A stretch of 30,891 nucleotides of DNA from a candidate division WOR-3 bacterium (lineage in GTDB: Bacteria; Hydrothermota; Tepidihabitantia; Tepidihabitantales; Tepidihabitantaceae), in NCBI GenBank assembly GCA_965649295.1, contig CBFGKH010000015.1, positions 1 through 30,891 on the forward strand. The letters are read 5' to 3'. The position numbers were made by a program, and so were the translations under genes. Below the pieces are notes generated by a model that worked only from the letters and a program-made list of their open reading frames with translations, was not told where the DNA came from and searched no databases. Of the stretch, positions 3 through 28,112 are shown piece by piece. Positions within the stretch are counted from its first letter, which is position 1, and each line of letters starts with the position of its first letter.

Positions 3-542
3 CAAGAAGCCGTCAAGGGCGGCGGTGTCCGTGAGCTGGTGGAGCGGGTCGAAGTGCCGGTCTACGCCGGTGCGTTGGGCGTGCCGGGCGTGACGCAAAT
101 TGAGCCAGAGCGGTTGCTGGCGCTGGGTTACCGGTTGACCGGCGTAGTGCCGGTGCTTTGCCGCTGCGCAGAAGGCCGGCGGCTGGCGGCCGAGACGCCG
201 ACAGGCATCAGTTTGCCCGACAACGATACCCGCTGCTACTACGTGAGGGCAATCGCCTGTGAGGTGCGCCGACTGTTGGACACACCAATGCCCGACCCGG
301 ACGCCAAGCGACCGTTGGCTGCTCGGTTGCCAGCGTTCAAGCTGCCGCTTTGCCGCTGGTGCGGCAATACCGGAAAGCGGGAAGCTCCACCGCTTCGGCC
401 GTCCGGGAAGCCGTTCTGGTGCTATTGCAACTGTTGCATTGGCCATCTTCTCGAGACGGCAGAGACCAGTAGTGACGCCGGCTGGGTGGCACGGGCAAGA
501 CTGGAATTGGCAAAAATACAGGAGGCGAGCAATGTCCGTTGA
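3..542 (+). CDS. Cys-rich putative Zn-binding protein, 5'-truncated by the window edge
   Basis: Frame is open from position 3 (QEAVKGGGVRELVERVEV...). Contains CRCAEG, CRWCGNTG and CYCNCCIG motifs; the stop overlaps the next gene. Confidence 0.6.
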   Translation, partial: QEAVKGGGVRELVERVEVPVYAGALGVPGVTQIEPERLLALGYRLTGVVPVLCRCAEGRRLAAETPTGISLPDNDTRCYYVRAIACEVRRLLDTPMPDPDAKRPLAARLPAFKLPLCRWCGNTGKREAPPLRPSGKPFWCYCNCCIGHLLETAETSSDAGWVARARLELAKIQEASNVR

Positions 543-1074
543 GTTTCGCGAGAAATATACGGGCGAGCTTGCCCACATCAAGAATCCGGCCATTCAACCG
601 CTTGCTGACTGGCTGCTGGATTGGGCCAGACAGCACGGCGGCGAAGTGTCGGCCAACGATGTGCCGAGAGACCTGATTGAGCGCAACAACTGGCGTAATG
701 CCGCCGGCGAGCTGTTGGGCAATTACGCTATTGGAACGGCGCTGCGGCGGTTGGAGTGGCTTGGGCTGGTCGAGCCGGTGCGCAGGATACCGGCGGGCGG
801 TGAGAACGACTCTCACCGGCAGGTGACCGTCTACCGGTTGACCGAGCCAGTGCGGCCGCCGGTGAGCGAGCCCGATAACCGGGCGCTGGCAGAGTCGGTG
901 GCTTGGTTGCTGTGCCGACTCCGGGAATGGCCGGCACCGCCAAAGGGCGCCACAGTTGAGTTTGTCGCCGGCTGGCGGGCGGCGCTGCGAGAGCTAAACG
1001 ATTCGGTTCTGGTGTCGGCAATCCGGGAGCAACTAAGGGCCGTCGGAGTTTGGGCCGACGAGGAGGACAAATGA
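532..1074 (+). CDS. Putative winged-helix DNA-binding protein (180 aa)
   Basis: GGAGG then ATG532 (MSVEFREKY...). The segment AIGTALRRLEWLGLVE...VTVYRLT resembles a wHTH recognition helix plus wing. The track's 259 start is an unlikely extension. Confidence 0.6.
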   Translation: MSVEFREKYTGELAHIKNPAIQPLADWLLDWARQHGGEVSANDVPRDLIERNNWRNAAGELLGNYAIGTALRRLEWLGLVEPVRRIPAGGENDSHRQVTVYRLTEPVRPPVSEPDNRALAESVAWLLCRLREWPAPPKGATVEFVAGWRAALRELNDSVLVSAIREQLRAVGVWADEEDK

Positions 1075-1523
1075 CCGACAGTTACTGCTGGCGATGTGTC
1101 GAGTGCGGCGAACGCTTTGCGCTTGACGACCTAGTTCGGTTCTCCGACCGTTGTCCGCATTGTGGAGCGATAGGGAACCGGTTGACCCTGATAGAAGCAC
1201 GAGGCAGAAGCGAGGAGCAAATGACTATGAGGCTGATACAAGATGTTTGCGACGCCGTAATTGCGCGGGCCTTTTCGGCCGCCTACGACGAGGCGGTAGC
1301 GCTGGCGAAAGAAGTCGGCATACCCGAAAGCGAAGTGACGCCTGACGCCGACCACAAGGACGAAATAGTGAACCTTGTGGTCGAAACCATAAAGCAACAC
1401 CCGCCAAAGCCGGATGACAACTTGGCAATCTGGACTGTTGCGACGTCCAAGTTACTGCTCGACGTCGTAAACCGCAACCGTGAGCTGTTTTTTTCGGACT
1501 GCTCGAGCGTATCAGGGCGATGA
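1071..1523 (+). CDS. Zn-ribbon plus helical domain protein
   Basis: AGGAGG RBS and ATGA overlap with the upstream stop; CVECG...CPHCG. A possible internal start lies at ATG1221 after GAGGAG. Confidence 0.7.
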   Translation: MTDSYCWRCVECGERFALDDLVRFSDRCPHCGAIGNRLTLIEARGRSEEQMTMRLIQDVCDAVIARAFSAAYDEAVALAKEVGIPESEVTPDADHKDEIVNLVVETIKQHPPKPDDNLAIWTVATSKLLLDVVNRNRELFFSDCSSVSGR

Positions 1524-2131: not shown

Positions 2132-2355
2132 TGGTTAGGCAGTTTGCTAGAATAGTTCCAAATCGAGAGTTCGGGGCTGTAATTGCCCGACTGATTGAGC
2201 TTGGCGATGTCAAGGATGCCGTGTCGCTGGTGCGACTTGCCGGTTCAGGCGGGCGCATCAGAGTCATCGGCGAAGGCGAGAATAGGACTGTGGTAAAACA
2301 GGGCAGTTATCGGCGTATTGTGCTGTCGGAAAGCTGCCTGAGGATGGAGAGTTGA
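2131..2355 (+). CDS. Hypothetical protein (74 aa)
   Basis: ORF coupled to the upstream stop by TAATG; tiles the operon. Confidence 0.6.
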   Translation: MVRQFARIVPNREFGAVIARLIELGDVKDAVSLVRLAGSGGRIRVIGEGENRTVVKQGSYRRIVLSESCLRMES

Positions 2356-4287: not shown

Positions 4288-4474
4288 TCCCGACAAGGTC
4301 AATCTGAACGATCTTGCCAGAGCTGTAACGCTGGAGGAAGGCGGCAAGGTGAGCCTGCCGATCGGCCAAGTGCGCGAGGTGCTGCGGCTGGTGCTGCGGC
4401 GTTTGGCGACCGATTACACGGAGGCCGCTGTGCTGGCAACGCTGCGCCGCGTGCGACGCAAGGCGGCGCAATGA
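4268..4474 (+). CDS. Small basic helical protein, weak resemblance to HU/IHF N-terminal helices
   Basis: AGGAGGAG RBS; VNLNDLARAVTLEEGG...QVREVLRLVLRRL. Confidence 0.6.
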   Translation: MSETVRNPDKVNLNDLARAVTLEEGGKVSLPIGQVREVLRLVLRRLATDYTEAAVLATLRRVRRKAAQ

Positions 4475-4600
4475 GCAGAGCTATCGGGCGTAGCGTCAAC
4501 GAGTTGCGCGACCTAGCGAGGTCGTCGGACTTGATGAGTTTGCGACATTGGGCAGTATCGCCCGCGTCCTCGGCGTTGAGGGCAAACTACCGGAGGAGCT

Positions 4601-4828
4601 GTGAATGACAATTGGGTCGTGAAGCTGTGGATCGGGATGCAGGATGGGCTGTGGTTTCGCAAGTGTCCGCCGACGCTGTGCACTAGGGGCAAGTGCCCGG
4701 ACTCGATTGACGACATTGCGCTGGCGCAGAGATTCGTCAGCCGCGCCGAAGCCGAGGAGTGCGCCCGCGTTCTGGCGTGGACGATGCCCGGCGTGATCAG
4801 AGCGGAGGCGGTGCGCTCGGCGCTATGA
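4601..4828 (+). CDS. Hypothetical protein (75 aa)
   Basis: GGAGG then GTG4601; DIALAQRFVSRAEAE segment. Confidence 0.6.
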   Translation: MNDNWVVKLWIGMQDGLWFRKCPPTLCTRGKCPDSIDDIALAQRFVSRAEAEECARVLAWTMPGVIRAEAVRSAL

Positions 4829-4885
4829 CCGCTGTCGCAATGCTGGTCTTCGGTGGCTGCTGGCTGGACGAACTGAGGTGACTGT

Positions 4886-5536
4886 GTGGCGGTGATGATG
4901 CCTGATTCATTGAGGCCATTACTGCGGCCGATAACCGACCTGATCCCCTATGAGCGCAATGCCCGGCGGCACAAGCCGGAGGACATTGACCGATTGTGCA
5001 AGAGTCTAGAGTTCTACGGCTGGACGAGCCCGATAATCGCGTGGGCGCACGACGGCAGGCTATATATATCGGCCGGACACCTGCGTTATCAGGCAGCGTT
5101 GCGGCTCGGAATGGCCGAAGTGCCGGTGCTGGTGCGGGATGACTGGGACGAGGCAACCTTCCGGGCTTATACGATCTGGGACAATCAGTCCGTGCTGCGG
5201 GCCGAGTGGGACATCGACCTGCTACGGGACGAGTTGCAGACTCTGGACTTGGCACAGTTTGACTTGTCGCTCGCAGGGTTCGATCAGCCTGACATTCAAT
5301 CGTTGGGTGTTGCCGTGTCCGCGACGGAGTGGCCAGATCTGCCAGACGCGCCGAGGCCGGAGTTCCATCAACGCACCTTCGTCCTGCACGACAGCCAAGT
5401 CCCGGTTGTAGATGCGGCGCTTAGAGCAGCAAAAGCGGCGGGCGAGTTTGACGGCCCTAACCAAAACAGCAACGGGAATGCCCTGACCAGAATCGCCGAG
5501 GCATACCTCGCGGGAGGTGAGGGTGGGCGCAGCTAA
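4886..5536 (+). CDS. ParB/Sulfiredoxin N-terminal domain protein of the type found beside phage DNA-modification genes
   Basis: LIPYERNARRH...SLEFYGWTSPII...AGHLRYQAALRLGMAEVPV...YTIWDN; no methylase domain follows. Confidence 0.88.
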   Translation: MAVMMPDSLRPLLRPITDLIPYERNARRHKPEDIDRLCKSLEFYGWTSPIIAWAHDGRLYISAGHLRYQAALRLGMAEVPVLVRDDWDEATFRAYTIWDNQSVLRAEWDIDLLRDELQTLDLAQFDLSLAGFDQPDIQSLGVAVSATEWPDLPDAPRPEFHQRTFVLHDSQVPVVDAALRAAKAAGEFDGPNQNSNGNALTRIAEAYLAGGEGGRS

Positions 5537-6359
5537 GGCGCTTGAGATCAGGCCGATACCATCTCAGGTCGCTAACGCGTTTGTGCGGCGAGTTCATTAT
5601 AGCGGTAAGGTCGCACCGAACTCGCAACTTCACTTGGGGGTGTTCTGGAACGGAAGGCTCGAGGGCGCGATGCAGTTCGGCCCATCATTAGACAAGAGCA
5701 AGATTATCGGGCTGGTGCGTGGGACTGGGTGGAATCAGTTCCTTGAACTCAACCGCCTTGCGTTCACAGATGTTTTGCCACGCAACAGCGAGTCTAGGGC
5801 GTTGGGCGTGGCGTTTCGAATGATGCGGCGGCTCTATCCACATATCAAGTGGGTCGTTTCGTTCGCCGATGCGACACAATGCGGCGATGGGACAATATAC
5901 CGGGCGGCAGGGTTTGTGCTGACCGCCGTCAGGCGGAATAACTCCCTTTGGGAGCTGCCTGACGATGGGCGTTTCGATTGGCTTGGAACGAAGACCAAAG
6001 CAGGCCGGCGGTTGGTGCATCTCATAGCTCCATCTGGTCGCTCAATCGTTCACGAGGTGTCCACCAGAACCGGCAAGGCTGCGCTTGATATGTTTCAAAT
6101 CACCGGCGGTGCGGCTTCGACGCGTCCGCTTGCCGAGGCGGGAGCGCGGGTGCTTGATGGGTTTCAGCTACGCTATATCTATTTTCTCGACCCGACTTGG
6201 CGCGAGCGGCTGACCGTGCCGGAACTGCCATATTCGGCAATCGTCGAGGCCGGGGCGAAGATGTATCGTGGAGTGCGGCAGGCCGATAGAGGCGCGGGCA
6301 AGCCAATGTCCGAAGGCGGTGCAACCCCGACCCTGCCGCTTGAGATTGCAGACGACTGA
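5523..6359 (+). CDS. mom: Mom-family adenine hypermodification (carbamoylmethylation) enzyme, GNAT fold
   Basis: HYSGK..NSQLHLGVF, LELNRL, PRNSESRAL, YPHIKWVVSFAD, GTIYRAAGF and FQLRYIYFL match the blocks of phage Mu Mom as I recall them; GGAGG RBS before GTG5523. Confidence 0.9.
   Translation: MGAAKALEIRPIPSQVANAFVRRVHYSGKVAPNSQLHLGVFWNGRLEGAMQFGPSLDKSKIIGLVRGTGWNQFLELNRLAFTDVLPRNSESRALGVAFRMMRRLYPHIKWVVSFADATQCGDGTIYRAAGFVLTAVRRNNSLWELPDDGRFDWLGTKTKAGRRLVHLIAPSGRSIVHEVSTRTGKAALDMFQITGGAASTRPLAEAGARVLDGFQLRYIYFLDPTWRERLTVPELPYSAIVEAGAKMYRGVRQADRGAGKPMSEGGATPTLPLEIADD
6275..6340 (+). ncRNA. tRNA-Gly-like cloverleaf nested in the mom 3' end
   Basis: Acceptor GCGGCAG/CTGCCGC plus T discriminator; D-like hairpin GCC-GATAGA-GGC; stem CGGGCA/TGTCCG with loop AGCCAA; T-like arm GGCGG-TGCAACC-CCG(A)CC. 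Confidence 0.65.
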
Positions 6360-6450
6360 GGGCTATCCGATAAAGGCTAAGCTAAAGGCGCGGCGTTGGC
6401 AGGATCGCTGGCGCAGACTGCGCTTTTGCTGGCTGGCAGGATGCTGACGA

Positions 6451-7008
6451 ATGCGGACACCCGGTTATAAAAAGCGCACACTGGACATTCTGACGACAAT
6501 CGAGCATCTGTGCGGGCTGGGGCATACGGTAGAGGAAGTCGCAGACTTTCTGAGCATTAGTCGGCGGACACTGCAACGGTGGCGCAAAGCGTCGCCGGCC
6601 GTAAATGACGCCCTGCTAAAAGGTCAGGCGCGGGCGAAAGTGACAGTGACTAAGGCCCTGTTTGATCTTGCGACCGGCAGGGCGGTCAGAAGCGAGACCC
6701 GCCGGCCGGTGCTGACGGCGGACGGCAGGCCGGTATACGGGCCGGACGGTCGGCCAATCGAGCAGGTTGATCGGCAGTATTACCCGCCCAATCTTGGCGC
6801 ACAGGTCTTCTACCTCTGCAACCGAGACCCGGAGCGGTGGAAGAATGTCCAGCGGGTCGAGCTGTCGCAACCAACCACGCTGCTGCCGATACAGATCGTC
6901 GAGTCTGCAGGGCCAGAGCAGTCTATGCTACCACCGGGAGCTGGCGTCGGCGAGCAGCAGGATAGTCAGAGCGAGGTCGTGGCCGACTATGCCTATGAGG
7001 TAACTTGA
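6451..7008 (+). CDS. terS: Terminase small subunit
   Basis: HTH EEVADFLSISRRTLQRWRK, ALFDLATG and YYPPNLGAQVFYLCNRDPERWKN; immediately upstream of TerL. Confidence 0.8.
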   Translation: MRTPGYKKRTLDILTTIEHLCGLGHTVEEVADFLSISRRTLQRWRKASPAVNDALLKGQARAKVTVTKALFDLATGRAVRSETRRPVLTADGRPVYGPDGRPIEQVDRQYYPPNLGAQVFYLCNRDPERWKNVQRVELSQPTTLLPIQIVESAGPEQSMLPPGAGVGEQQDSQSEVVADYAYEVT

Positions 7009-7011
7009 TCG

Positions 7012-8340
7012 ATGGCTGCCGGCTGCCGCAAGCTGGAACTCTATCCGTGGCAGTTCGACGCATTGCGCCGGTTCAACAGGACAATCCTGCAGGACGGCAC
7101 GGTGCGCCGGTTCTTTGCCGCCTTCTGCGGCACAGGCGCGGGCAAGAGCCGGTTTGGCTCTGTCTGGTCGTTGGTGACTCATCAGCGCATTGCAGCCGAG
7201 CTTTTGGCCGCCGGTGAAACCCGGCAGCCGCTCGGATTGATTGTCGCGCCGACCTATCGCCATCTTGAGCGATTCGCTGTCGGCGAGCTGTTGTCGGTGG
7301 TGCGCGGCACGGCCCACGCTGCACGCTACAGTCGGCACGATGGCGTCTTGGAGTTTGCGCCGGCGACCGGCGGCGGACGGGCTTACTGCGGGTCTGCCGA
7401 CCGTCCTGAGTCGCTGGAAGGGGCGCATATTGACTGGGCCTGGGTTGACGAGGCGGGTCTGACAAGCGACTTGACTTGGGCCGTCATACTGGCCCGGACG
7501 CAGATACGACTCGCGCCGGTGCTGCTCACTAGCTACTGGTATTCCCTGCAATGGTGCTACACCGAGTGGTGGCAGCGATGGCAGGCTGGCGACCCGGCAT
7601 ATGACATCGTCAACTATCCGTCGACGGCCAACCCCAAAGTGTCAAAGGCCGAGTTTGAGCGTTTGCGGCGAGTTATGGACGAGCGCCTGTTTCAGATGCG
7701 CCACGAGGGCCGGCCGGCCCGTATGGTTGGGCAAGTGTATGCCGGCGCTTGGAACCCGGCCGACCCGGTGCTTCACTGCGACGCACCGGCCGTCGGCCCG
7801 GACTGGCTGTGCTGGCTGGGCGTAGACCAAGGATATGCTCCCGACCCGTTTCACGCTGTCGTGATGGCCGAGTGTCCCGACACCGGCGTAATCTACGCCA
7901 TCGGCGAGTATCGGGCGAACGAGAAGCTCACAACCGAGAACGCTGTTGCCCTGACCCGGCTGATTGACCGGCTGGGCGTCCGGGCGCAAACCAAGCGAGC
8001 ATATGTTGACCCGGCCAACAAACAAGGGCTCGCCGACCTGCGGGCGGCTCTGCGCAGAGTCCAGCAGGCCGACCCAACCCTGCTACCGCTTGACATTGCC
8101 GTCAACCCGGCCCATAATGCGGTCGAGGCAGGCATTGAGGCCGTCTTCGAAGCGTTCAAGTCCGGCCGTCTTCGCATTGTGCGAGGCCGTTGCCCTGCGC
8201 TGGTGCGAGAGCTGGAGCTGTATCATCGAGACCCACAAGGCGACCTCGTCAAAGCGAACGACCACGGCCCGGACGCACTGCGTTACGGGCTTTACTCTTG
8301 GCGGCGACGGGCAACGCTGGCGGAGCTTGGACTTGGGTGA
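7012..8340 (+). CDS. terL: Terminase large subunit
   Basis: Walker A GTGAGKS, Walker B WAWVDEAG, nuclease GVDQG, YVDPA and NDHGPDALRY. Confidence 0.93.
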   Translation: MAAGCRKLELYPWQFDALRRFNRTILQDGTVRRFFAAFCGTGAGKSRFGSVWSLVTHQRIAAELLAAGETRQPLGLIVAPTYRHLERFAVGELLSVVRGTAHAARYSRHDGVLEFAPATGGGRAYCGSADRPESLEGAHIDWAWVDEAGLTSDLTWAVILARTQIRLAPVLLTSYWYSLQWCYTEWWQRWQAGDPAYDIVNYPSTANPKVSKAEFERLRRVMDERLFQMRHEGRPARMVGQVYAGAWNPADPVLHCDAPAVGPDWLCWLGVDQGYAPDPFHAVVMAECPDTGVIYAIGEYRANEKLTTENAVALTRLIDRLGVRAQTKRAYVDPANKQGLADLRAALRRVQQADPTLLPLDIAVNPAHNAVEAGIEAVFEAFKSGRLRIVRGRCPALVRELELYHRDPQGDLVKANDHGPDALRYGLYSWRRRATLAELGLG

Positions 8341-24789: not shown

Positions 24790-25551
24790 ATGCTAAGATG
24801 GAACCTCGAAAAAATCAGAAACTGGCAGTCACTCTGTCTGACCAGAGAAGGAGGAAAAGTGATAACAGTCCTAGAGCAGATGAAGGCGCTCGCCGGCCGT
24901 CACCGCCGACGAGTGCTTGGGCCAAACGACTTGTTTCAGGCCTTGGCCGAAGCACGGCGCACTGGCGTCGGTGTCCAAGCCGGCGAGACAGTGGCCAACA
25001 ATTATAGCTTTCCCGCCAGCAGGATGCGACTGTTGGCGGTCAAAGCCGGCGACCGCTATGGCATCCTGATGGACTGGGGTTCGGCCCGCAAGGGGGCGAC
25101 CCCAGTTCCAATTCCTGGCGGCTTGCGATCGAAAATGGGAAAAGCCATCCTTGCCGCTGCGCAGCAAGGCGAATTACTCTCGGAATATCGAGAGGTGGTT
25201 GATTATCGGCGAGAGCCGATAATTCACCGGTTTAACTGGCTGGTAGTATCGGCCAGCGAAGTGAACCGGTCACTAGCCCGGTGGCGGTGCGAGGCACGCC
25301 GCCGGCGCTGGGAAGCCTGGCCGGAAGAGCCTGACAGCGCCCTGCAAGTGACAGTCGCTGACTCGCTGGCCGCCGGCAACTGTCGGGCCGAGACCGAACG
25401 AGTCGCCGGCTGGTGGCCGGCCGGAACCGAGTCGGTATCGGCCGCTGAGCTCCGCCAGGCTATTCTCGAGCGTGAACCCACGCTGGCGGAGTATGCAAAG
25501 CGGGCCATCAAAGCGGCACGCCAGCGCCAACAGGAGGAGGAATGCCGCTAA
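24790..25551 (+). CDS. Hypothetical early protein (alternative start GTG24859)
   Basis: Two in-frame starts, each with a strong SD; VTVADSLAAGNC motif near the C-terminus. Confidence 0.7.
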   Translation: MLRWNLEKIRNWQSLCLTREGGKVITVLEQMKALAGRHRRRVLGPNDLFQALAEARRTGVGVQAGETVANNYSFPASRMRLLAVKAGDRYGILMDWGSARKGATPVPIPGGLRSKMGKAILAAAQQGELLSEYREVVDYRREPIIHRFNWLVVSASEVNRSLARWRCEARRRRWEAWPEEPDSALQVTVADSLAAGNCRAETERVAGWWPAGTESVSAAELRQAILEREPTLAEYAKRAIKAARQRQQEEECR

Positions 25552-26495
25552 GGGGCTTTGTTGACGACACCGGCCGTCCAGTGTCGTGGCAGGAGTTGCG
25601 AGACGGGGGCGGGCGCTTTGCCTGCCCCCGACCCGTTCTGTTGGCGCTGGCGAAATCGGCATCGGCCGAACACGATTACGCCGACCTAACTGCCAGCGCA
25701 ATCGCTGGCGGACTGGTTCGGCAACGGGAGCTGATGCGCCGCTGCGACTACTACGAGTCGTGGCAGGCGCATTACTACGCTTGGCTAGGCAGTGCGGCCC
25801 ACACGGTCGTGGAAAGCGCCGCCCGCTCGGCGTTCGGGGTTGGCGAGGCGACCGTAGTGGTTGCTCACAGGTCAGGGCTGACGATTGGTGGTCGGTTCGA
25901 TTGGCTCGAGATAGACCCGCACGCCAAGAAGGCACGGCTATACGACTACAAGACCGTTACAGTCTATGCCGTGCGGCAGGTCTTGGCCAACGGTGTCCGG
26001 GCCGAGAAACCGGAATGGGTAACGCAACTGAACATTTATCGCTGGCTGATAGACCGGGCGGTCGGCGGTATGTCTGTCAGGTTCGATTACCGGCACCATT
26101 CTGTTGGCTTCGACCATATCGTAGCGCCCTGTAACCTCTATATCGTCGCCCTTGCTCGAGACTGGACACCGGCCAAAGCTGAAGCTTTGCCGGTCGAGCT
26201 GATTGCTGTGCCGGTGCTAGCCGATAGTGAAATCGAGGCTGTCGTTGACGCCGCCGTCGCCGACTTGCTTGCCGTTCAAGCAATCACGGACAGCAACCTG
26301 TTGCCGCCTTGCCCGACGGACAGACTGTGGTTCAATGAACGAACCGGCATTGTCCAGCGGTGCGCGAATTACTGCCCGGTATCCGACTGGTGCAATCAGT
26401 GGGCGTATACCAAACGGCTAATTGCTGAGTCCGGGACGGGCCGGGCAACTGCGGCAATGCTCGACGAGGCGGCAATCCAGATTGGCCGGAAATGA
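25542..26495 (+). CDS. PD-(D/E)XK (RecB/Cas4-like) exonuclease
   Basis: LGSAAH, GRFD, LYDYKT, QLNIY and C-terminal RCANYCPVSDWC. Confidence 0.85.
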   Translation: MPLRGFVDDTGRPVSWQELRDGGGRFACPRPVLLALAKSASAEHDYADLTASAIAGGLVRQRELMRRCDYYESWQAHYYAWLGSAAHTVVESAARSAFGVGEATVVVAHRSGLTIGGRFDWLEIDPHAKKARLYDYKTVTVYAVRQVLANGVRAEKPEWVTQLNIYRWLIDRAVGGMSVRFDYRHHSVGFDHIVAPCNLYIVALARDWTPAKAEALPVELIAVPVLADSEIEAVVDAAVADLLAVQAITDSNLLPPCPTDRLWFNERTGIVQRCANYCPVSDWCNQWAYTKRLIAESGTGRATAAMLDEAAIQIGRK

Positions 26496-26728
26496 CAAGG
26501 GCGCAGAGAAGTAGATATCCAATGCACACCAAGCTACTACTGGCGGCTGAGGCGCTAATGGCGTTAGTCCGAGCCTATCGGACTGACGCTAGAGATGAAG
26601 ATGGCCAGCTCAGTGAGCAGGGACGGCAGATTGCTGACCGGGCCGAGCAGGCTTGCCGTCGGTTGCTTGAGCTGGCGCAAACGCTGGCAACCGAGCCAAA
26701 GGAGAAGAACAATGAGCAAGGCAAATAG
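26492..26728 (+). CDS. Hypothetical helical protein (78 aa)
   Basis: ATGA overlap; tiles the operon. Confidence 0.55.
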   Translation: MTRAQRSRYPMHTKLLLAAEALMALVRAYRTDARDEDGQLSEQGRQIADRAEQACRRLLELAQTLATEPKEKNNEQGK

Positions 26729-28112
26729 CAGCCAGTCGGGGCTTGCAATCACCCGACTGGAAGTCCGTAACTATCAGAGAGTCCGGTTGGCGAGAGTCAA
26801 GCTCTCGCCGACCGGACTGACCGTCATCAAGGGCAAGAACGGTCAAGGGAAAACCAGCCTATTCAACGCTATCGCCGATGCACTGGGTGTGGCCGACCGT
26901 GACCCGGCCCGGCGAGTTGTGCGGCCGGTTCAGACCGGCGCTGCGGCCGCCAAGGTGCGGTTGGAATTGGCGCCGCAAGAGTCGCCTGATGAACCGCAGT
27001 TTGTAGTCCAAAAAACAATTACCAGCAAGGGTGAATACCTGCGGGTGACCGACGCTCGAGGGGCGGCATATAGCAAGCCCCAACAGCTGCTCGACGCACT
27101 GCTGGGGCGACTCGGCGCTTTCAACCCGCTGGACTTCGTTCGAATGCGGCCCGACGAGCAACGGCAAGAACTACTCAGGCTTATAGAATGGCCCGACATC
27201 ACTGCCGACCTTGCACGACTGGAAATTGCCGTTGGCGACGGGCAGACACCGCTCGATGCGCTGGACGCTGCGGTGAATGAAGCCTACGAGTATCGCACGC
27301 AGGTCAATCGTGACCTGCGCCGGTCGCAACAGGCACTTGACGCTCTCCATTTACCGCAGGGCTGGCGGACAATGAGGCAACCCGACATCACTGGACTGTT
27401 GGCCGAGCGTGACCGGCTGTCACGACAATCACGGGAGTGGCAAGAGGCCCAGTTGGCTGTTGAGCGGGCCAGTGCCGCCGCTCACGAATCACGAGAGCGG
27501 GTAATCCAGCTGGAAGCGGCGTTACTGGCTGCCCGCAAGCGATTGGAGTCGGACGAGGCTCAGTTGGAAGCGGCCAAGAACCGATTGTCTGGACTGTCTG
27601 AACCTGATGCCAGCGAGCTGGCCCGTATAGATGCAGAGCTTGCTCAGGCCCAGACTACTAGTGCGGTGTGGGCGAGGATTGAACAGGCCCGTGCGCTGGA
27701 ACACGACCGGGCGATGGCCGAAGCCGAGTCTGAGCGGCTGACCGGGCGGATTGAAGCTATCAATCGGCTCAAGGCCCGACTTGCTGCCGAGGCGAAGGCG
27801 CCAATTCCCGGACTTGCACACGACCCCACACTGGGCGTTACCTACAACGGACAACCGCTGAGTCAATGCTCTCACTCGGAACAAATCCGGGTCGGGCTGG
27901 CGCTGGCGTATGCGTCCAACCCAAAGTTGCGGTTCGTGCGATGTCCCGAGACGATGCTCGATGGACTGGACGCCGACAACCTGCGACAGTTGGAAGACGA
28001 CCTTGCCCGTTACGGGTTTCAACTACTGGCCGAGCAGGTGTTGCGAGATGAGTCCGACGGGCTGATTATTGAGGACGGCGAGCTTGACGCCGACAACAAC
28101 AAGGAGGACTGA
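26712..28112 (+). CDS. SMC/Rad50/SbcC-like ATPase with coiled coil
   Basis: ITRLEVRNYQRV, Walker A GKNGQGKTS, long coiled coil, signature-like CSHSEQ and D-loop-like DGLD. Confidence 0.85.
   Translation: MSKANSSQSGLAITRLEVRNYQRVRLARVKLSPTGLTVIKGKNGQGKTSLFNAIADALGVADRDPARRVVRPVQTGAAAAKVRLELAPQESPDEPQFVVQKTITSKGEYLRVTDARGAAYSKPQQLLDALLGRLGAFNPLDFVRMRPDEQRQELLRLIEWPDITADLARLEIAVGDGQTPLDALDAAVNEAYEYRTQVNRDLRRSQQALDALHLPQGWRTMRQPDITGLLAERDRLSRQSREWQEAQLAVERASAAAHESRERVIQLEAALLAARKRLESDEAQLEAAKNRLSGLSEPDASELARIDAELAQAQTTSAVWARIEQARALEHDRAMAEAESERLTGRIEAINRLKARLAAEAKAPIPGLAHDPTLGVTYNGQPLSQCSHSEQIRVGLALAYASNPKLRFVRCPETMLDGLDADNLRQLEDDLARYGFQLLAEQVLRDESDGLIIEDGELDADNNKED

Follow-up and report, generated by a model that had tools for sequence, protein, structure and literature searches.

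A covarying family of tRNA-Gly-like elements tied to phage mom genes and its possible role as a glycine carrier for DNA modification

The co-substrate of the DNA modification enzyme Mom was a puzzle for decades and has recently been shown to be Gly-tRNAGly which, in the published picture, is scavenged from the host. Here we ask whether a mom gene may bring a glycine carrier of its own. The question is raised by a contig from a candidate division WOR-3 bacterium (CBFGKH010000015.1, assembly GCA_965649295.1, positions 1-30,891; this whole stretch of 30,891 nucleotides is hereafter called the window), in which the 3' end of a mom homologue folds like a small tRNA-Gly. An earlier sequence-only reading had proposed that this fold is either a dedicated glycyl donor for Mom or a cis element that regulates mom.

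The mom locus and the fold at its 3' end

The features relevant to this question, all of them on the forward strand, are the following:

4886..5536, forward: ParB-like nuclease-domain gene, overlapping the start of mom (Pfam ParB_N; PHROG 620, E 6e-39)
5517..6359, forward: mom homologue of 280 codons (Pfam PF25680, E 2e-50, residues 9-240; PHROG 1384 'Mom-like DNA modification protein', E 8e-46)
6275..6340, forward: tRNA-Gly-like RNA element of the reduced 66-nt class, from position 1 to the discriminator U73 (minimum free energy cloverleaf and match to covariance model R1)
6275..6281, forward: acceptor stem, 5' strand GCGGCAG (G1 C2 G3 and following), 7/7 pairs with 6333-6339
6282..6293, forward: mini D-hairpin GCC-GATAGA-GGC, adjoining the acceptor stem in the fold
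6295..6312, forward: anticodon-like hairpin CGGGCA/TGTCCG, with a 6-bp stem and the 6-nt loop AGCCAA, GCC at 6302-6304
6315..6332, forward: T arm GGCGG-TGCAACC-CCG(A)CC, with a 5-bp T stem and A6330 bulged
6333..6340, forward: acceptor stem, 3' strand CTGCCGC, and discriminator T6340 (U73), as read from the sequence
6451..7008, forward: small terminase subunit, the next gene downstream (PHROG 309, E 1.7e-29)

The protein encoded by the mom homologue displayed 36% identity to Mu Mom and matched PDB entry 8bv8 with an E value of 4e-26. Its residues H27, Y28, R80, S93, and D118 align with H58, Y59, R111, S124, and D149 of Mu Mom, and Mu R151 is aligned to Q121. The ParB-like gene is a recurrent partner of this mom clade, and the gene order ParB-mom-terS recurs in Psychrobacter phage vB_PmaS_Y8A. 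A search of genome contigs with the window Mom protein returned no relative; the bacterial-genome loci described below were gathered by a DNA pattern scan instead. As had been claimed from the sequence, the element overlaps only the tail beyond the alignable part of Mom, since it occupies codons 253-275 and the Pfam match ends at residue 240. In the predicted structure, residues 260-280 have pLDDT values below 50 and no secondary structure, so that this tail is predicted to be disordered. Its peptide 'GGATPTLPL' is the T arm read as codons.

The cloverleaf described in the sequence-only reading, arm by arm, is both the minimum free energy and the centroid fold of 6275-6340 (-31.5 kcal/mol). 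Judged on this single sequence, the fold is not beyond chance: its z-score against shuffled sequences was -1.94, and 10 of 200 shuffles folded equally well. ARAGORN, one of the checks that had been suggested, called no tRNA in the window, and a search of positions 5400-7200 against Rfam, including the tRNA family RF00005, returned no match at E<=10. A scan of 4400-7100 for consensus promoters and terminators found nothing above shuffle expectation near the element.

The marks of a canonical decoding tRNA are absent from the window copy, which displays the 6-nt loop AGCCAA, the D loop GATAGA, and the T loop TGCAACC where we compared it with a 7-nt anticodon loop carrying U33, a D loop with G18 G19, and a T loop beginning with TTC. 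Likewise, there is no encoded CCA, as U73 is directly followed by a TGA (6341-6343) that is out of the mom frame. Hence, every deformity listed in the earlier reading (a D loop lacking GG, a bulged T stem, a 6-nt loop, and a missing CCA) is visible in the sequence.

The significance of the element comes from comparison with its homologues, which overrides these weak single-sequence statistics. Covariance model R1, built exclusively from 26 longer (76-nt) homologues with the window sequence left out, matches 6275-6343 end to end (model positions 1-76) with 36.6 bits and an E value of 1.5e-6. The same model matches six ordinary host tRNAs, tRNA-Gly(UCC) being the best of the host matches; thus, a match to R1 alone indicates a tRNA shape and not membership of the family. 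The hallmarks of the family, described below, are all present in the window copy, which lacks just the encoded CCA, a frequent and non-universal feature.

A covarying family linked to mom genes

In addition to the window, R1 matched 79 of the 80 closest mom loci, and in 78 of the 80 the element lies on the coding strand of mom, where the gene ends. When 7/7 acceptor pairs, 5/5 T-stem pairs with the bulged A, U73, and G1 were all required, it was present in 67 of 71 mom tails. The linkage also emerged from searches that used the nucleotide motif and made no use of mom: of 80 viral loci, 74 had a match to the Mom HMM on the strand of the motif, and mom adjoined the motif in 60 of 80 loci from bacterial genomes, across many phyla. 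Twelve copies found in bacterial genomes by the motif had no recognisable mom within 1.2 kb, and Pfam searches of the ORFs beside them revealed no Mom, which counts against a role as a carrier for Mom. Meanwhile, none of 45 Mu-type mom loci displayed the element, and it was absent from the loci of Mu, JD024, and pAEv1818 when these were checked.

The position of the element relative to the reading frame was established in 146 distinct contexts. It shared the position seen in the window (on the mom strand, abutting or overlapping mom) in 125 of them: the ORF read through the element in 101, stopped inside it in 15, and stopped before it in nine. In another 13 contexts, the element stood in front of mom. 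Where the ORF reaches the element, all three frames are used (59, 47, and 10 cases). Because the same nucleotides are kept in every frame, beyond a stop, or ahead of the gene, their conservation is not due to constraint on a peptide. The arrangement before or after mom changed only three times on a tree of 176 Mom domains. Four contigs carry tandem double copies, among them that of the cultured Psychrobacter phage vB_PmaS_Y8A, in which they lie in an unannotated intergenic gap (2162-2302 of locus L081), as would be expected for a trans-acting RNA gene. The element is also carried by the lysogen Limnohabitans sp. MMS-10A-192 (locus L292).

Covariation among mom homologues, the test proposed in the sequence-only reading, bears out an RNA. 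In alignments fitted to the covariance model, 94.9% of paired cells were complementary, against 34-44% when the partners were slid by one to three columns, and changes on both sides were observed in 19 of 21 pairs. Pairing was complete (100%) in the acceptor stem, where each variable pair had undergone 41-46 double changes, and the covarying T stem was 99.7% paired. Even the D-hairpin displays compensation, with CCC-ATTAGA-GGG at the same place in loci L011 and L266.

The T arm, U73, and CCA were already set in the search pattern by which two of the three sequence sets were gathered, so that for these features only the 72 distinct mom-selected copies are unbiased. Among those 72, G1:C72, C2:G71, and U73 were each invariant (72/72), G3:C70 was present in 65, and the bulged A of the T stem in 70. 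CCA was encoded in 56 and missing from 16, as it is in the window. The T loop began with TTC in just 14; 33 copies were 64-68 nt long, and the D arm was lost in about half. The anticodon-like loop contained NCC in 197 of 201 hairpins, a CC occurring in 23.5% of shuffles, and the triplets were UCC (92), ACC (86), CCC (12), and GCC (7). Only 76 of 197 copies had U33, loops as called were 3-6 nt long in 182 of 201 hairpins, and the 6-nt loops of other members take the form NNCCAA. NCC and U73 were therefore kept whatever the frame or stop position, as the sequence-only reading had required of a genuine RNA.

These alignments place the window element in a large, covarying, tRNA-shaped family that is physically tied to mom and accompanies Mom genes in phages whose hosts span many bacterial phyla. 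The features read by bacterial GlyRS are kept across the aligned copies: G1:C72, C2:G71, mostly G3:C70, U73, and C35 and C36 within the NCC loop. The glycine identity set given in the earlier reading is in print for G1-C72, the acceptor pair next to it, U73, C35, and C36 (PMC7826273). Meanwhile, features needed for decoding are lost or deformed, as seen in the frequent absence of U33, the 5-6 nt loops, the frequent ACC, the reduced D arm, TGC in place of TTC, and the bulged A.

A separate case was locus L145, in which a DruA/DUF4338 protein carries the same element. In a profile comparison of this protein with Mom, only the translated element aligned, and a PDB sequence search with it gave nothing meaningful. 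The presence of the element at L145 hints that other enzymes, perhaps including a component of Druantia defence, use the same carrier.

A glycine carrier for Mom and its competitors

Based on these findings, we lean, with slightly better than even confidence, towards the interpretation that 6275-6340 is the gene of a small tRNA-Gly-derived RNA laid over the 3' end of mom, which would be charged by GlyRS and serve as a private glycyl donor for Mom. The RNA would be co-transcribed with mom late in infection and excised by host RNase P and 3' processing enzymes, and in this host its 3' end would be completed by the CCA-adding enzyme. The host alpha2beta2 GlyRS would then glycylate it. The bulged T stem and the crippled anticodon loop would shut the charged RNA out of EF-Tu and the ribosome, creating a private pool of Gly-tRNA. 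Mom would draw on this pool to glycylate the N6 of adenine in phage DNA, and a rearrangement would yield N6-carbamoylmethyl-dA. For the large cross-phylum Mom clade of phages and islands, we consider it an even bet that it forms a two-part cassette, in which the enzyme is accompanied by an overprinted private mini-tRNA serving only the delivery of glycine to DNA.

The gene content of the host suggests that it can mature and charge such an RNA, as it includes glyQ and a gene of the PolyA_pol/CCA-enzyme family. CCA could be encoded by at most 11 of the 47 host tRNA genes and is lacking from all three host tRNA-Gly genes. Published work agrees with the chemistry. The use of Gly-tRNA by Mom and its GNAT fold, both named in the sequence-only reading, are in print, and Mom is reported to need Gly-tRNAGly with a terminal ribo-A and to reject Gly-tRNAAla (PMC13219725). 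In staphylococci, EF-Tu is described as sequestering proteogenic Gly-tRNAGly from FmhB, and isoacceptors with TGC/TGT loops feed the transferase (PMC7826273). The element RNA is not required for the chemistry itself, since Mu Mom is reported to be active with all three host tRNAGly isoacceptors (PMC13219725) and Mu-type loci lack the element. Two properties of the locus count against a carrier: excision of the element would cut the mom mRNA in two, 84 nt ahead of the stop codon, and the window copy is a reduced form with no normal D arm, a 6-nt loop, and no encoded CCA.

The strongest competitor, which we nonetheless consider unlikely, is that the fold acts in cis on the mom transcript, as a tRNA-like element for its processing or regulation. 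Cleavage at the cloverleaf by RNase P or RNase Z would define the 3' terminus of the mom mRNA (or its 5' terminus where the element precedes mom) and in this way control mRNA stability or the translation of a potentially toxic enzyme, glycine charging being incidental or acting as a sensor. Such a role would fit the constant placement on the mom strand, abutting or overlapping the ORF at either end, and the 13 viral loci in which mom starts some 1-220 nt after CCA, placing the start region in or beside the fold. It would also fit the annotation of Mu mom, according to which translation is controlled through RNA structure and Com, and the short hairpin followed by TTTT downstream of the window element (6411-6427). 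However, processing needs a tRNA shape only, which leaves the near-invariant U73, G1:C72, and C2:G71, and the persistence of NCC in loops of differing size, unexplained. The tandem duplicates are equally unexplained, as are the nine contexts in which the copy lies fully apart from the ORF.

It is improbable that the element is an ordinary, though odd, phage tRNA-Gly that aids phage translation and sits beside mom by happenstance. Phage tRNA genes are common, and three of ten loci, those of the most canonical members, passed the Rfam tRNA threshold (29.7-33.1 bits, cut-off 29), with GG in the D loop and TTCGA in the T loop. Nevertheless, the scarcity of U33, the short anticodon-like loops, the 86 copies with an ACC anticodon, the nearly constant bulge in the T stem, and the loss of the D arm in about half of the copies are at odds with decoding. 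ARAGORN called one of 60 loci, with a 4-base anticodon, and the motif adjoins mom in 74/80 and 60/80 loci.

We find it very unlikely that the element is a decoy or a spare against systems that attack Gly-tRNAGly, such as acetylating GNAT toxins, kept by mom because Mom needs that pool. Toxins of this kind specific to tRNAGly exist (TacT is cited in PMC13219725), and the acceptor identity of tRNAGly is kept in the element; yet the loci gave no sign of such a toxin, and what the element is tightly linked to, at one end or the other, is mom itself.

Last, the notion that there is no RNA here at all is barely credible and is refuted as far as sequence comparison can do so. It would make of the element a C-terminal peptide motif of Mom (GGAxPTxxL), as the conserved tail of many homologues in the protein alignment might suggest, a chance fold in GC-rich DNA, in line with the modest z-score of the window fold, or a host tRNA copied at an attachment site; but the 3' strand covaries with a partner strand that lies some 55 nt upstream of it, and the tail is predicted to be disordered. 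We rejected the peptide motif on the use of three frames and of positions past a stop or before mom, the attP copy on its longest identities (6 nt to host tRNA-Gly genes and 15 nt to the rest of the genome), and the chance fold on the comparative evidence, which outweighs weak single-sequence statistics.

Related systems and implications

The closest precedent comes from the ssrA genomic islands of Dehalococcoides, where a 76-bp tRNA-Gly-like 'pseudo-tRNA' lies in the first 150 bp of a mom homologue (McMurdie et al., BMC Genomics 2011, PMC3146451). Like the window element, it has a conserved tRNA-Gly shape and the anticodon 'DCC', and is located inside a mom homologue beside a ParB-domain gene. 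Our motif scan recovered many loci of Dehalococcoidia and Chloroflexota in which mom starts 1-13 nt after CCA, which indicates that the pseudo-tRNA belongs to the same family. According to that report, the Dehalococcoides copy is 76 nt long and belongs to an integrative island of a single genus, in which it occupies the 5' end of mom, whereas the window copy is a reduced form of 66 nt that lacks CCA, belongs to a tailed phage, and occupies the 3' end of mom. The report, in its available text, presents the sequence as no more than an unusual structure and a site for primers, with no link to the Gly-tRNA chemistry of Mom published in 2023/2026. Our literature search found no paper joining a tRNA-like element with a phage mom gene, and PMC3146451 was the sole relevant precedent for an embedded tRNA-Gly.

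Gly-tRNAGly was identified as the co-substrate for the Mom of phage Mu (Silva et al., Nat Commun 2026, PMC13219725), which belongs to the same Pfam Mom family as the window protein and requires this tRNA. Mu is described there as scavenging host tRNAGly and has no tRNA-like element, in contrast to the window phage, which carries one inside mom; the term 'tRNA-like' has no occurrence in the available text of that article.

A functional parallel is provided by the non-proteogenic tRNAGly isoacceptors of staphylococci, which feed FmhB/FemA/FemB (Rietmeyer et al., NAR 2021, PMC7826273). As in the window element, the determinants for GlyRS are kept in them, and their T loop has TGC/TGT instead of TTC, a substitution that the sequence-only reading had named correctly. 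These tRNAs are reserved for a tRNA-dependent transferase and escape EF-Tu; weak binding to EF-Tu was measured for them, and we infer the same for the element. Unlike it, they are described as full-size, cellular, and free of a T-stem bulge, their acceptor is a peptidoglycan precursor and not DNA, and their lineage is reported to be restricted to staphylococci (PMC7826273).

A more distant comparison can be made with the tRNA-like structures of plant viruses.
The 3' ends of plant viral RNAs carry aminoacylatable tRNA-like structures with synthetase identity elements, located within protein-coding RNA, and these act in cis on the RNA genome, in eukaryotes. The window element, by contrast, is encoded by a phage with a DNA genome, has its link to a single enzyme, and would probably be cut out of the transcript.

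These findings have implications for how Mom loci are annotated. The widespread 'conserved C-terminal motif' of Mom homologues is an annotation artefact, and behind it lies a class of RNA genes missed by tRNA finders, as the single ARAGORN call illustrates, and lacking any annotation in one complete phage genome of GenBank. The elements also provide a candidate natural minimal substrate of GlyRS, of 64-68 nt and with no normal D arm, and would be for viruses and DNA what the staphylococcal tRNAs are for cells and their walls. As Mom takes its glycine from charged tRNA-Gly, the window element is probably Mom's own glycine carrier, and the distribution of its family suggests that, outside the Mu group, most Mom genes come with a carrier of their own. 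If true, this would explain how Mom competes with translation for Gly-tRNA, and the element would be the first tRNA devoted to the modification of DNA.

The mom homologue of the window and the element in its 3′ end

The following features of the window are relevant to this analysis:

4886-5536: ParB-like nuclease-domain gene, upstream of mom
5517-6359 (+): mom homologue (Pfam PF25680, E 2e-50, residues 9-240)
6275-6340 (+): tRNA-Gly-like element, inside the 3′ end of the mom ORF

The mom ORF also matches the PHROG family 'Mom-like DNA modification protein' and PDB entry 8bv8, and its product is 36% identical to Mu Mom. Downstream of it lie tailed-phage genes for the terminase (small and large subunits), portal and head. 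The window is a complete 30.9-kb contig, one of 19 in a 2.28-Mb genome, and carries the only Mom gene of the host. Relatives of this Mom are abundant: at E≤0.001 they make up 7986 of 8000 scored candidates, and the top match other than itself has 62% identity. The reportedly essential R151 of Mu Mom aligns with Q121 (window 5877-5879), which is invariant in the window's Mom clade; the alignment is gapped here (DATQCGDG versus DE-RCGRAG in Mu), leaving the equivalence uncertain. The remaining reported key residues are kept in this clade. Downstream of the mom stop and ahead of terS, a short hairpin (GCGCA-GAC-TGCGC, then TTTT; 6411-6427) is a possible weak terminator, although it falls short of the thresholds of the terminator scan. 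Distant from mom, positions 25542-28112 hold an exonuclease-like ORF and then a large ORF matching a PHROG of unknown function (E 2e-68) and showing weak similarity to an SbcC-like family.

The sequence-only reading had described the 66 nt at 6275-6340 as a compact tRNA-Gly-like cloverleaf, and re-reading the window reproduced this description exactly. The cloverleaf is both the minimum free energy and the centroid structure (-31.5 kcal/mol). By itself this fold proves little, as 10 of 200 shuffles fold equally well (z -1.94). ARAGORN found no tRNA genes in the window, and Rfam gave no match to the element at E≤10. The host possesses three ordinary tRNA-Gly genes, none directly followed by CCA, as well as glyQ, encoding a GlyRS of the α2β2 type, and a gene of the PolyA_pol/CCA-enzyme family. 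No run of more than 6 bases is common to the element and the host tRNA-Gly genes, which rules out an attachment-site copy.

A structured RNA family selected at the nucleotide level

Many Moms have a C-terminal 'GGA(T/S)PTxxL' behind a variable linker (alignment of 25), which would make the element a conserved peptide motif. We compared the DNA beneath the protein tail in 80 mom loci taken from viral contigs. The nucleotide motif was kept in any frame, some loci reading 'RRCDTDP' instead, and in some the mom stop codon fell before or within the element. Among 146 distinct contexts, mom lay upstream in 125; its ORF ran through the whole element in 101 of these, while the stop codon fell within the element in 15 and ahead of it in 9. 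In ORFs reaching the element, position 1 fell in codon phase 2, 1 or 0 in 59, 47 and 10 cases, respectively. The element directly preceded mom in 13 contexts, a few bases past the stop codon of an unrelated preceding gene and with the Mom domain right after CCA; the other 7 had no Mom match, 4 of them being devoid of upstream DNA. As far as sequence comparison goes, a peptide motif is thus ruled out, since the nucleotides are kept across frames and outside the ORF. In an AlphaFold model of the window Mom, built from a shallow alignment (25 sequences), residues 260-280 had pLDDT <50 and no secondary structure.

Across loci, the 7 nt preceding T-CCA invariably have their complement in a 7-nt strand some 55 nt upstream, and the sequences of the two strands vary by locus. 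Under a strict definition, 67 of 71 mom tails, representing 59 distinct sequences, combine a fully paired acceptor stem (7/7) and a fully paired T stem (5/5) containing a bulged A with G1 and a discriminator T. Members of a class of about 73 nt have a 4-bp D arm; in some of them the D loop contains GG and the T loop carries TTCGA. Those of a 64-68-nt class, which includes the window element, have a reduced D region and an anticodon-like loop of 5-6 nt.

A covariance model of the family (R1), trained on 26 long-class members and excluding the window, matched 79 of the 80 mom loci, 78 of them on the mom strand at the mom 3′ end, besides the window element (36.6 bits, E 1.5e-6). In the scan of these 80 loci no match was found in L065. 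At L053 the match (2236-2307, minus strand) lies just beyond mom on the opposite strand, displaying a UCC loop, U73 and CCA and lacking the usual T arm. The best R1 match in the host genome is tRNA-Gly(UCC), and five further ordinary tRNAs match, so an R1 match by itself is not diagnostic. In the R1 alignment (74 distinct rows), which favours structure because it was fitted to the model, 94.9% of cells were paired, versus 34-44% with partners slid by 1-3 columns, and 19 of 21 pairs changed on both sides. The acceptor helix, whose complementarity had been seen earlier without any model, was 100% paired, positions 4-6 showing 41-46 double changes, and the T stem 99.7% paired. Most family members escape the usual tRNA finders: the Rfam tRNA model passed threshold for 3 of 10 loci tested, handling the bulged A as an insertion, and ARAGORN called 1 of 60, with a 4-base anticodon.

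Distribution and linkage to mom

Searching viral contigs by nucleotide motif alone returned at least 120 stretches. Of 80 fetched, 74 had a same-strand Mom HMM match, and 4 of the 6 misses came without flanking DNA. The same search over one genome per prokaryotic species yielded 83 stretches, spanning Proteobacteria, Chloroflexota, Bacillota, Actinomycetota, Acidobacteriota, Planctomycetota, Verrucomicrobiota, candidate phyla and others. Among the 80 fetched, mom was adjacent in 60 (upstream in 37, downstream in 23); of the remaining 20, 6 had only short flanking DNA, 2 were spurious matches in unrelated genes and 12 had no recognisable mom. In a FastTree phylogeny of 176 distinct Mom domains, the arrangement switched between before and after 3 times, with 'before' in 30 rows and related rows sharing labels. 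Mu-type mom loci gave no element match (0/45), nor did Mu, JD024 and pAEv1818 (best E 0.12).

The 12 mom-less copies, all in bacterial genomes (L263, L265, L268, L269, L274, L275, L282, L289, L300, L312, L318 and L334), look full, and no mom could be recognised up to 1.2 kb away; some adjoin ordinary metabolic genes, e.g. acyl-CoA dehydrogenase or GFO/IDH oxidoreductase. L312 shares its MAG with L316, where mom lies 4 nt downstream of a nearly identical element.

The cultured, completely sequenced Psychrobacter phage vB_PmaS_Y8A (OQ059336.1) carries two tandem copies (locus L081, positions 2162-2229 and 2234-2302) filling its mom-terS gap, where GenBank has no annotated feature. Three metagenomic contigs also carry tandem pairs.

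In one viral contig (L145), an ORF not recognisable as Mom (106-1245, plus strand) reads through an element at 1154-1229. Its product belongs to the DruA/DUF4338 (Druantia) family (Pfam E 8e-28; PADLOC DruA E 1e-21), and profile comparison with Mom aligned the translated element only. DUF4338 proteins may also use such a carrier.

Glycine identity and a possible donor function

The 72 distinct copies gathered through mom loci all possess G1:C72, C2:G71 and U73, while G3:C70 occurs in 65, the bulged-A T stem in 70 and an encoded CCA in 56. Their T loops start with TGC (30), TTC (14), CGC (10), GGC (10) or TGT (5). In a pool of 206 distinct copies, where two of three sets were gathered by the 3′ motif and only the 5′ strand and loop are therefore unbiased, CC was present in the anticodon-like loop of 197 of 201 hairpins found, versus 23.5% in shuffles. 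The triplets were UCC (92), ACC (86), CCC (12) and GCC (7), preceded by U in just 76 of 197. Glycylation determinants are G1-C72, the second acceptor pair, U73, C35 and C36 (PMC7826273); these are the invariant or near-invariant features of the family, indicating that glycine identity is kept. In staphylococcal non-proteogenic tRNAGly genes TGC or TGT replaces TTC, and proteogenic isoacceptors are sequestered by EF-Tu away from FmhB (PMC7826273).

Mu Mom moves glycine from Gly-tRNAGly onto N6 of adenine in dsDNA, requires the terminal ribo-A, accepts 3/3 E. coli isoacceptors and rejects Gly-tRNAAla (Silva et al., PMC13219725); its authors regard the tRNA as scavenged from the host. The most economical reading is that the mom-linked RNA is a private glycyl donor, as the sequence-only reading proposed, with GlyRS identity kept and decoding crippled. 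Such an RNA would be transcribed together with mom and kept away from both EF-Tu and the ribosome; EF-Tu presumably contacts the T-stem region that holds the bulged A. Beyond an RNA gene under selection for tRNA-Gly shape, every step is what we infer, and we lean only slightly towards the full mechanism. Excision poses a problem for it, as the mom mRNA would be cut upstream of the stop codon at most loci. That the element instead acts in cis, in processing or regulation, seems to us unlikely.

A conserved 76-bp tRNA-Gly-like 'pseudo-tRNA' with anticodon DCC was reported within the first 150 bp of a mom homologue in Dehalococcoides ssrA islands, without being assigned a function (McMurdie et al. 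2011, PMC3146451). Our motif scan recovered this element-before-mom arrangement in Dehalococcoidia. The text of the two Mom papers (one being PMC13219725) does not mention a tRNA-like element, and our searches found no literature linking such an element to Mom glycine chemistry. New here are the breadth across phyla, the statistics of frame independence and a cultured phage with the element, to which the window adds a reduced, CCA-less variant embedded at the mom 3′ end.
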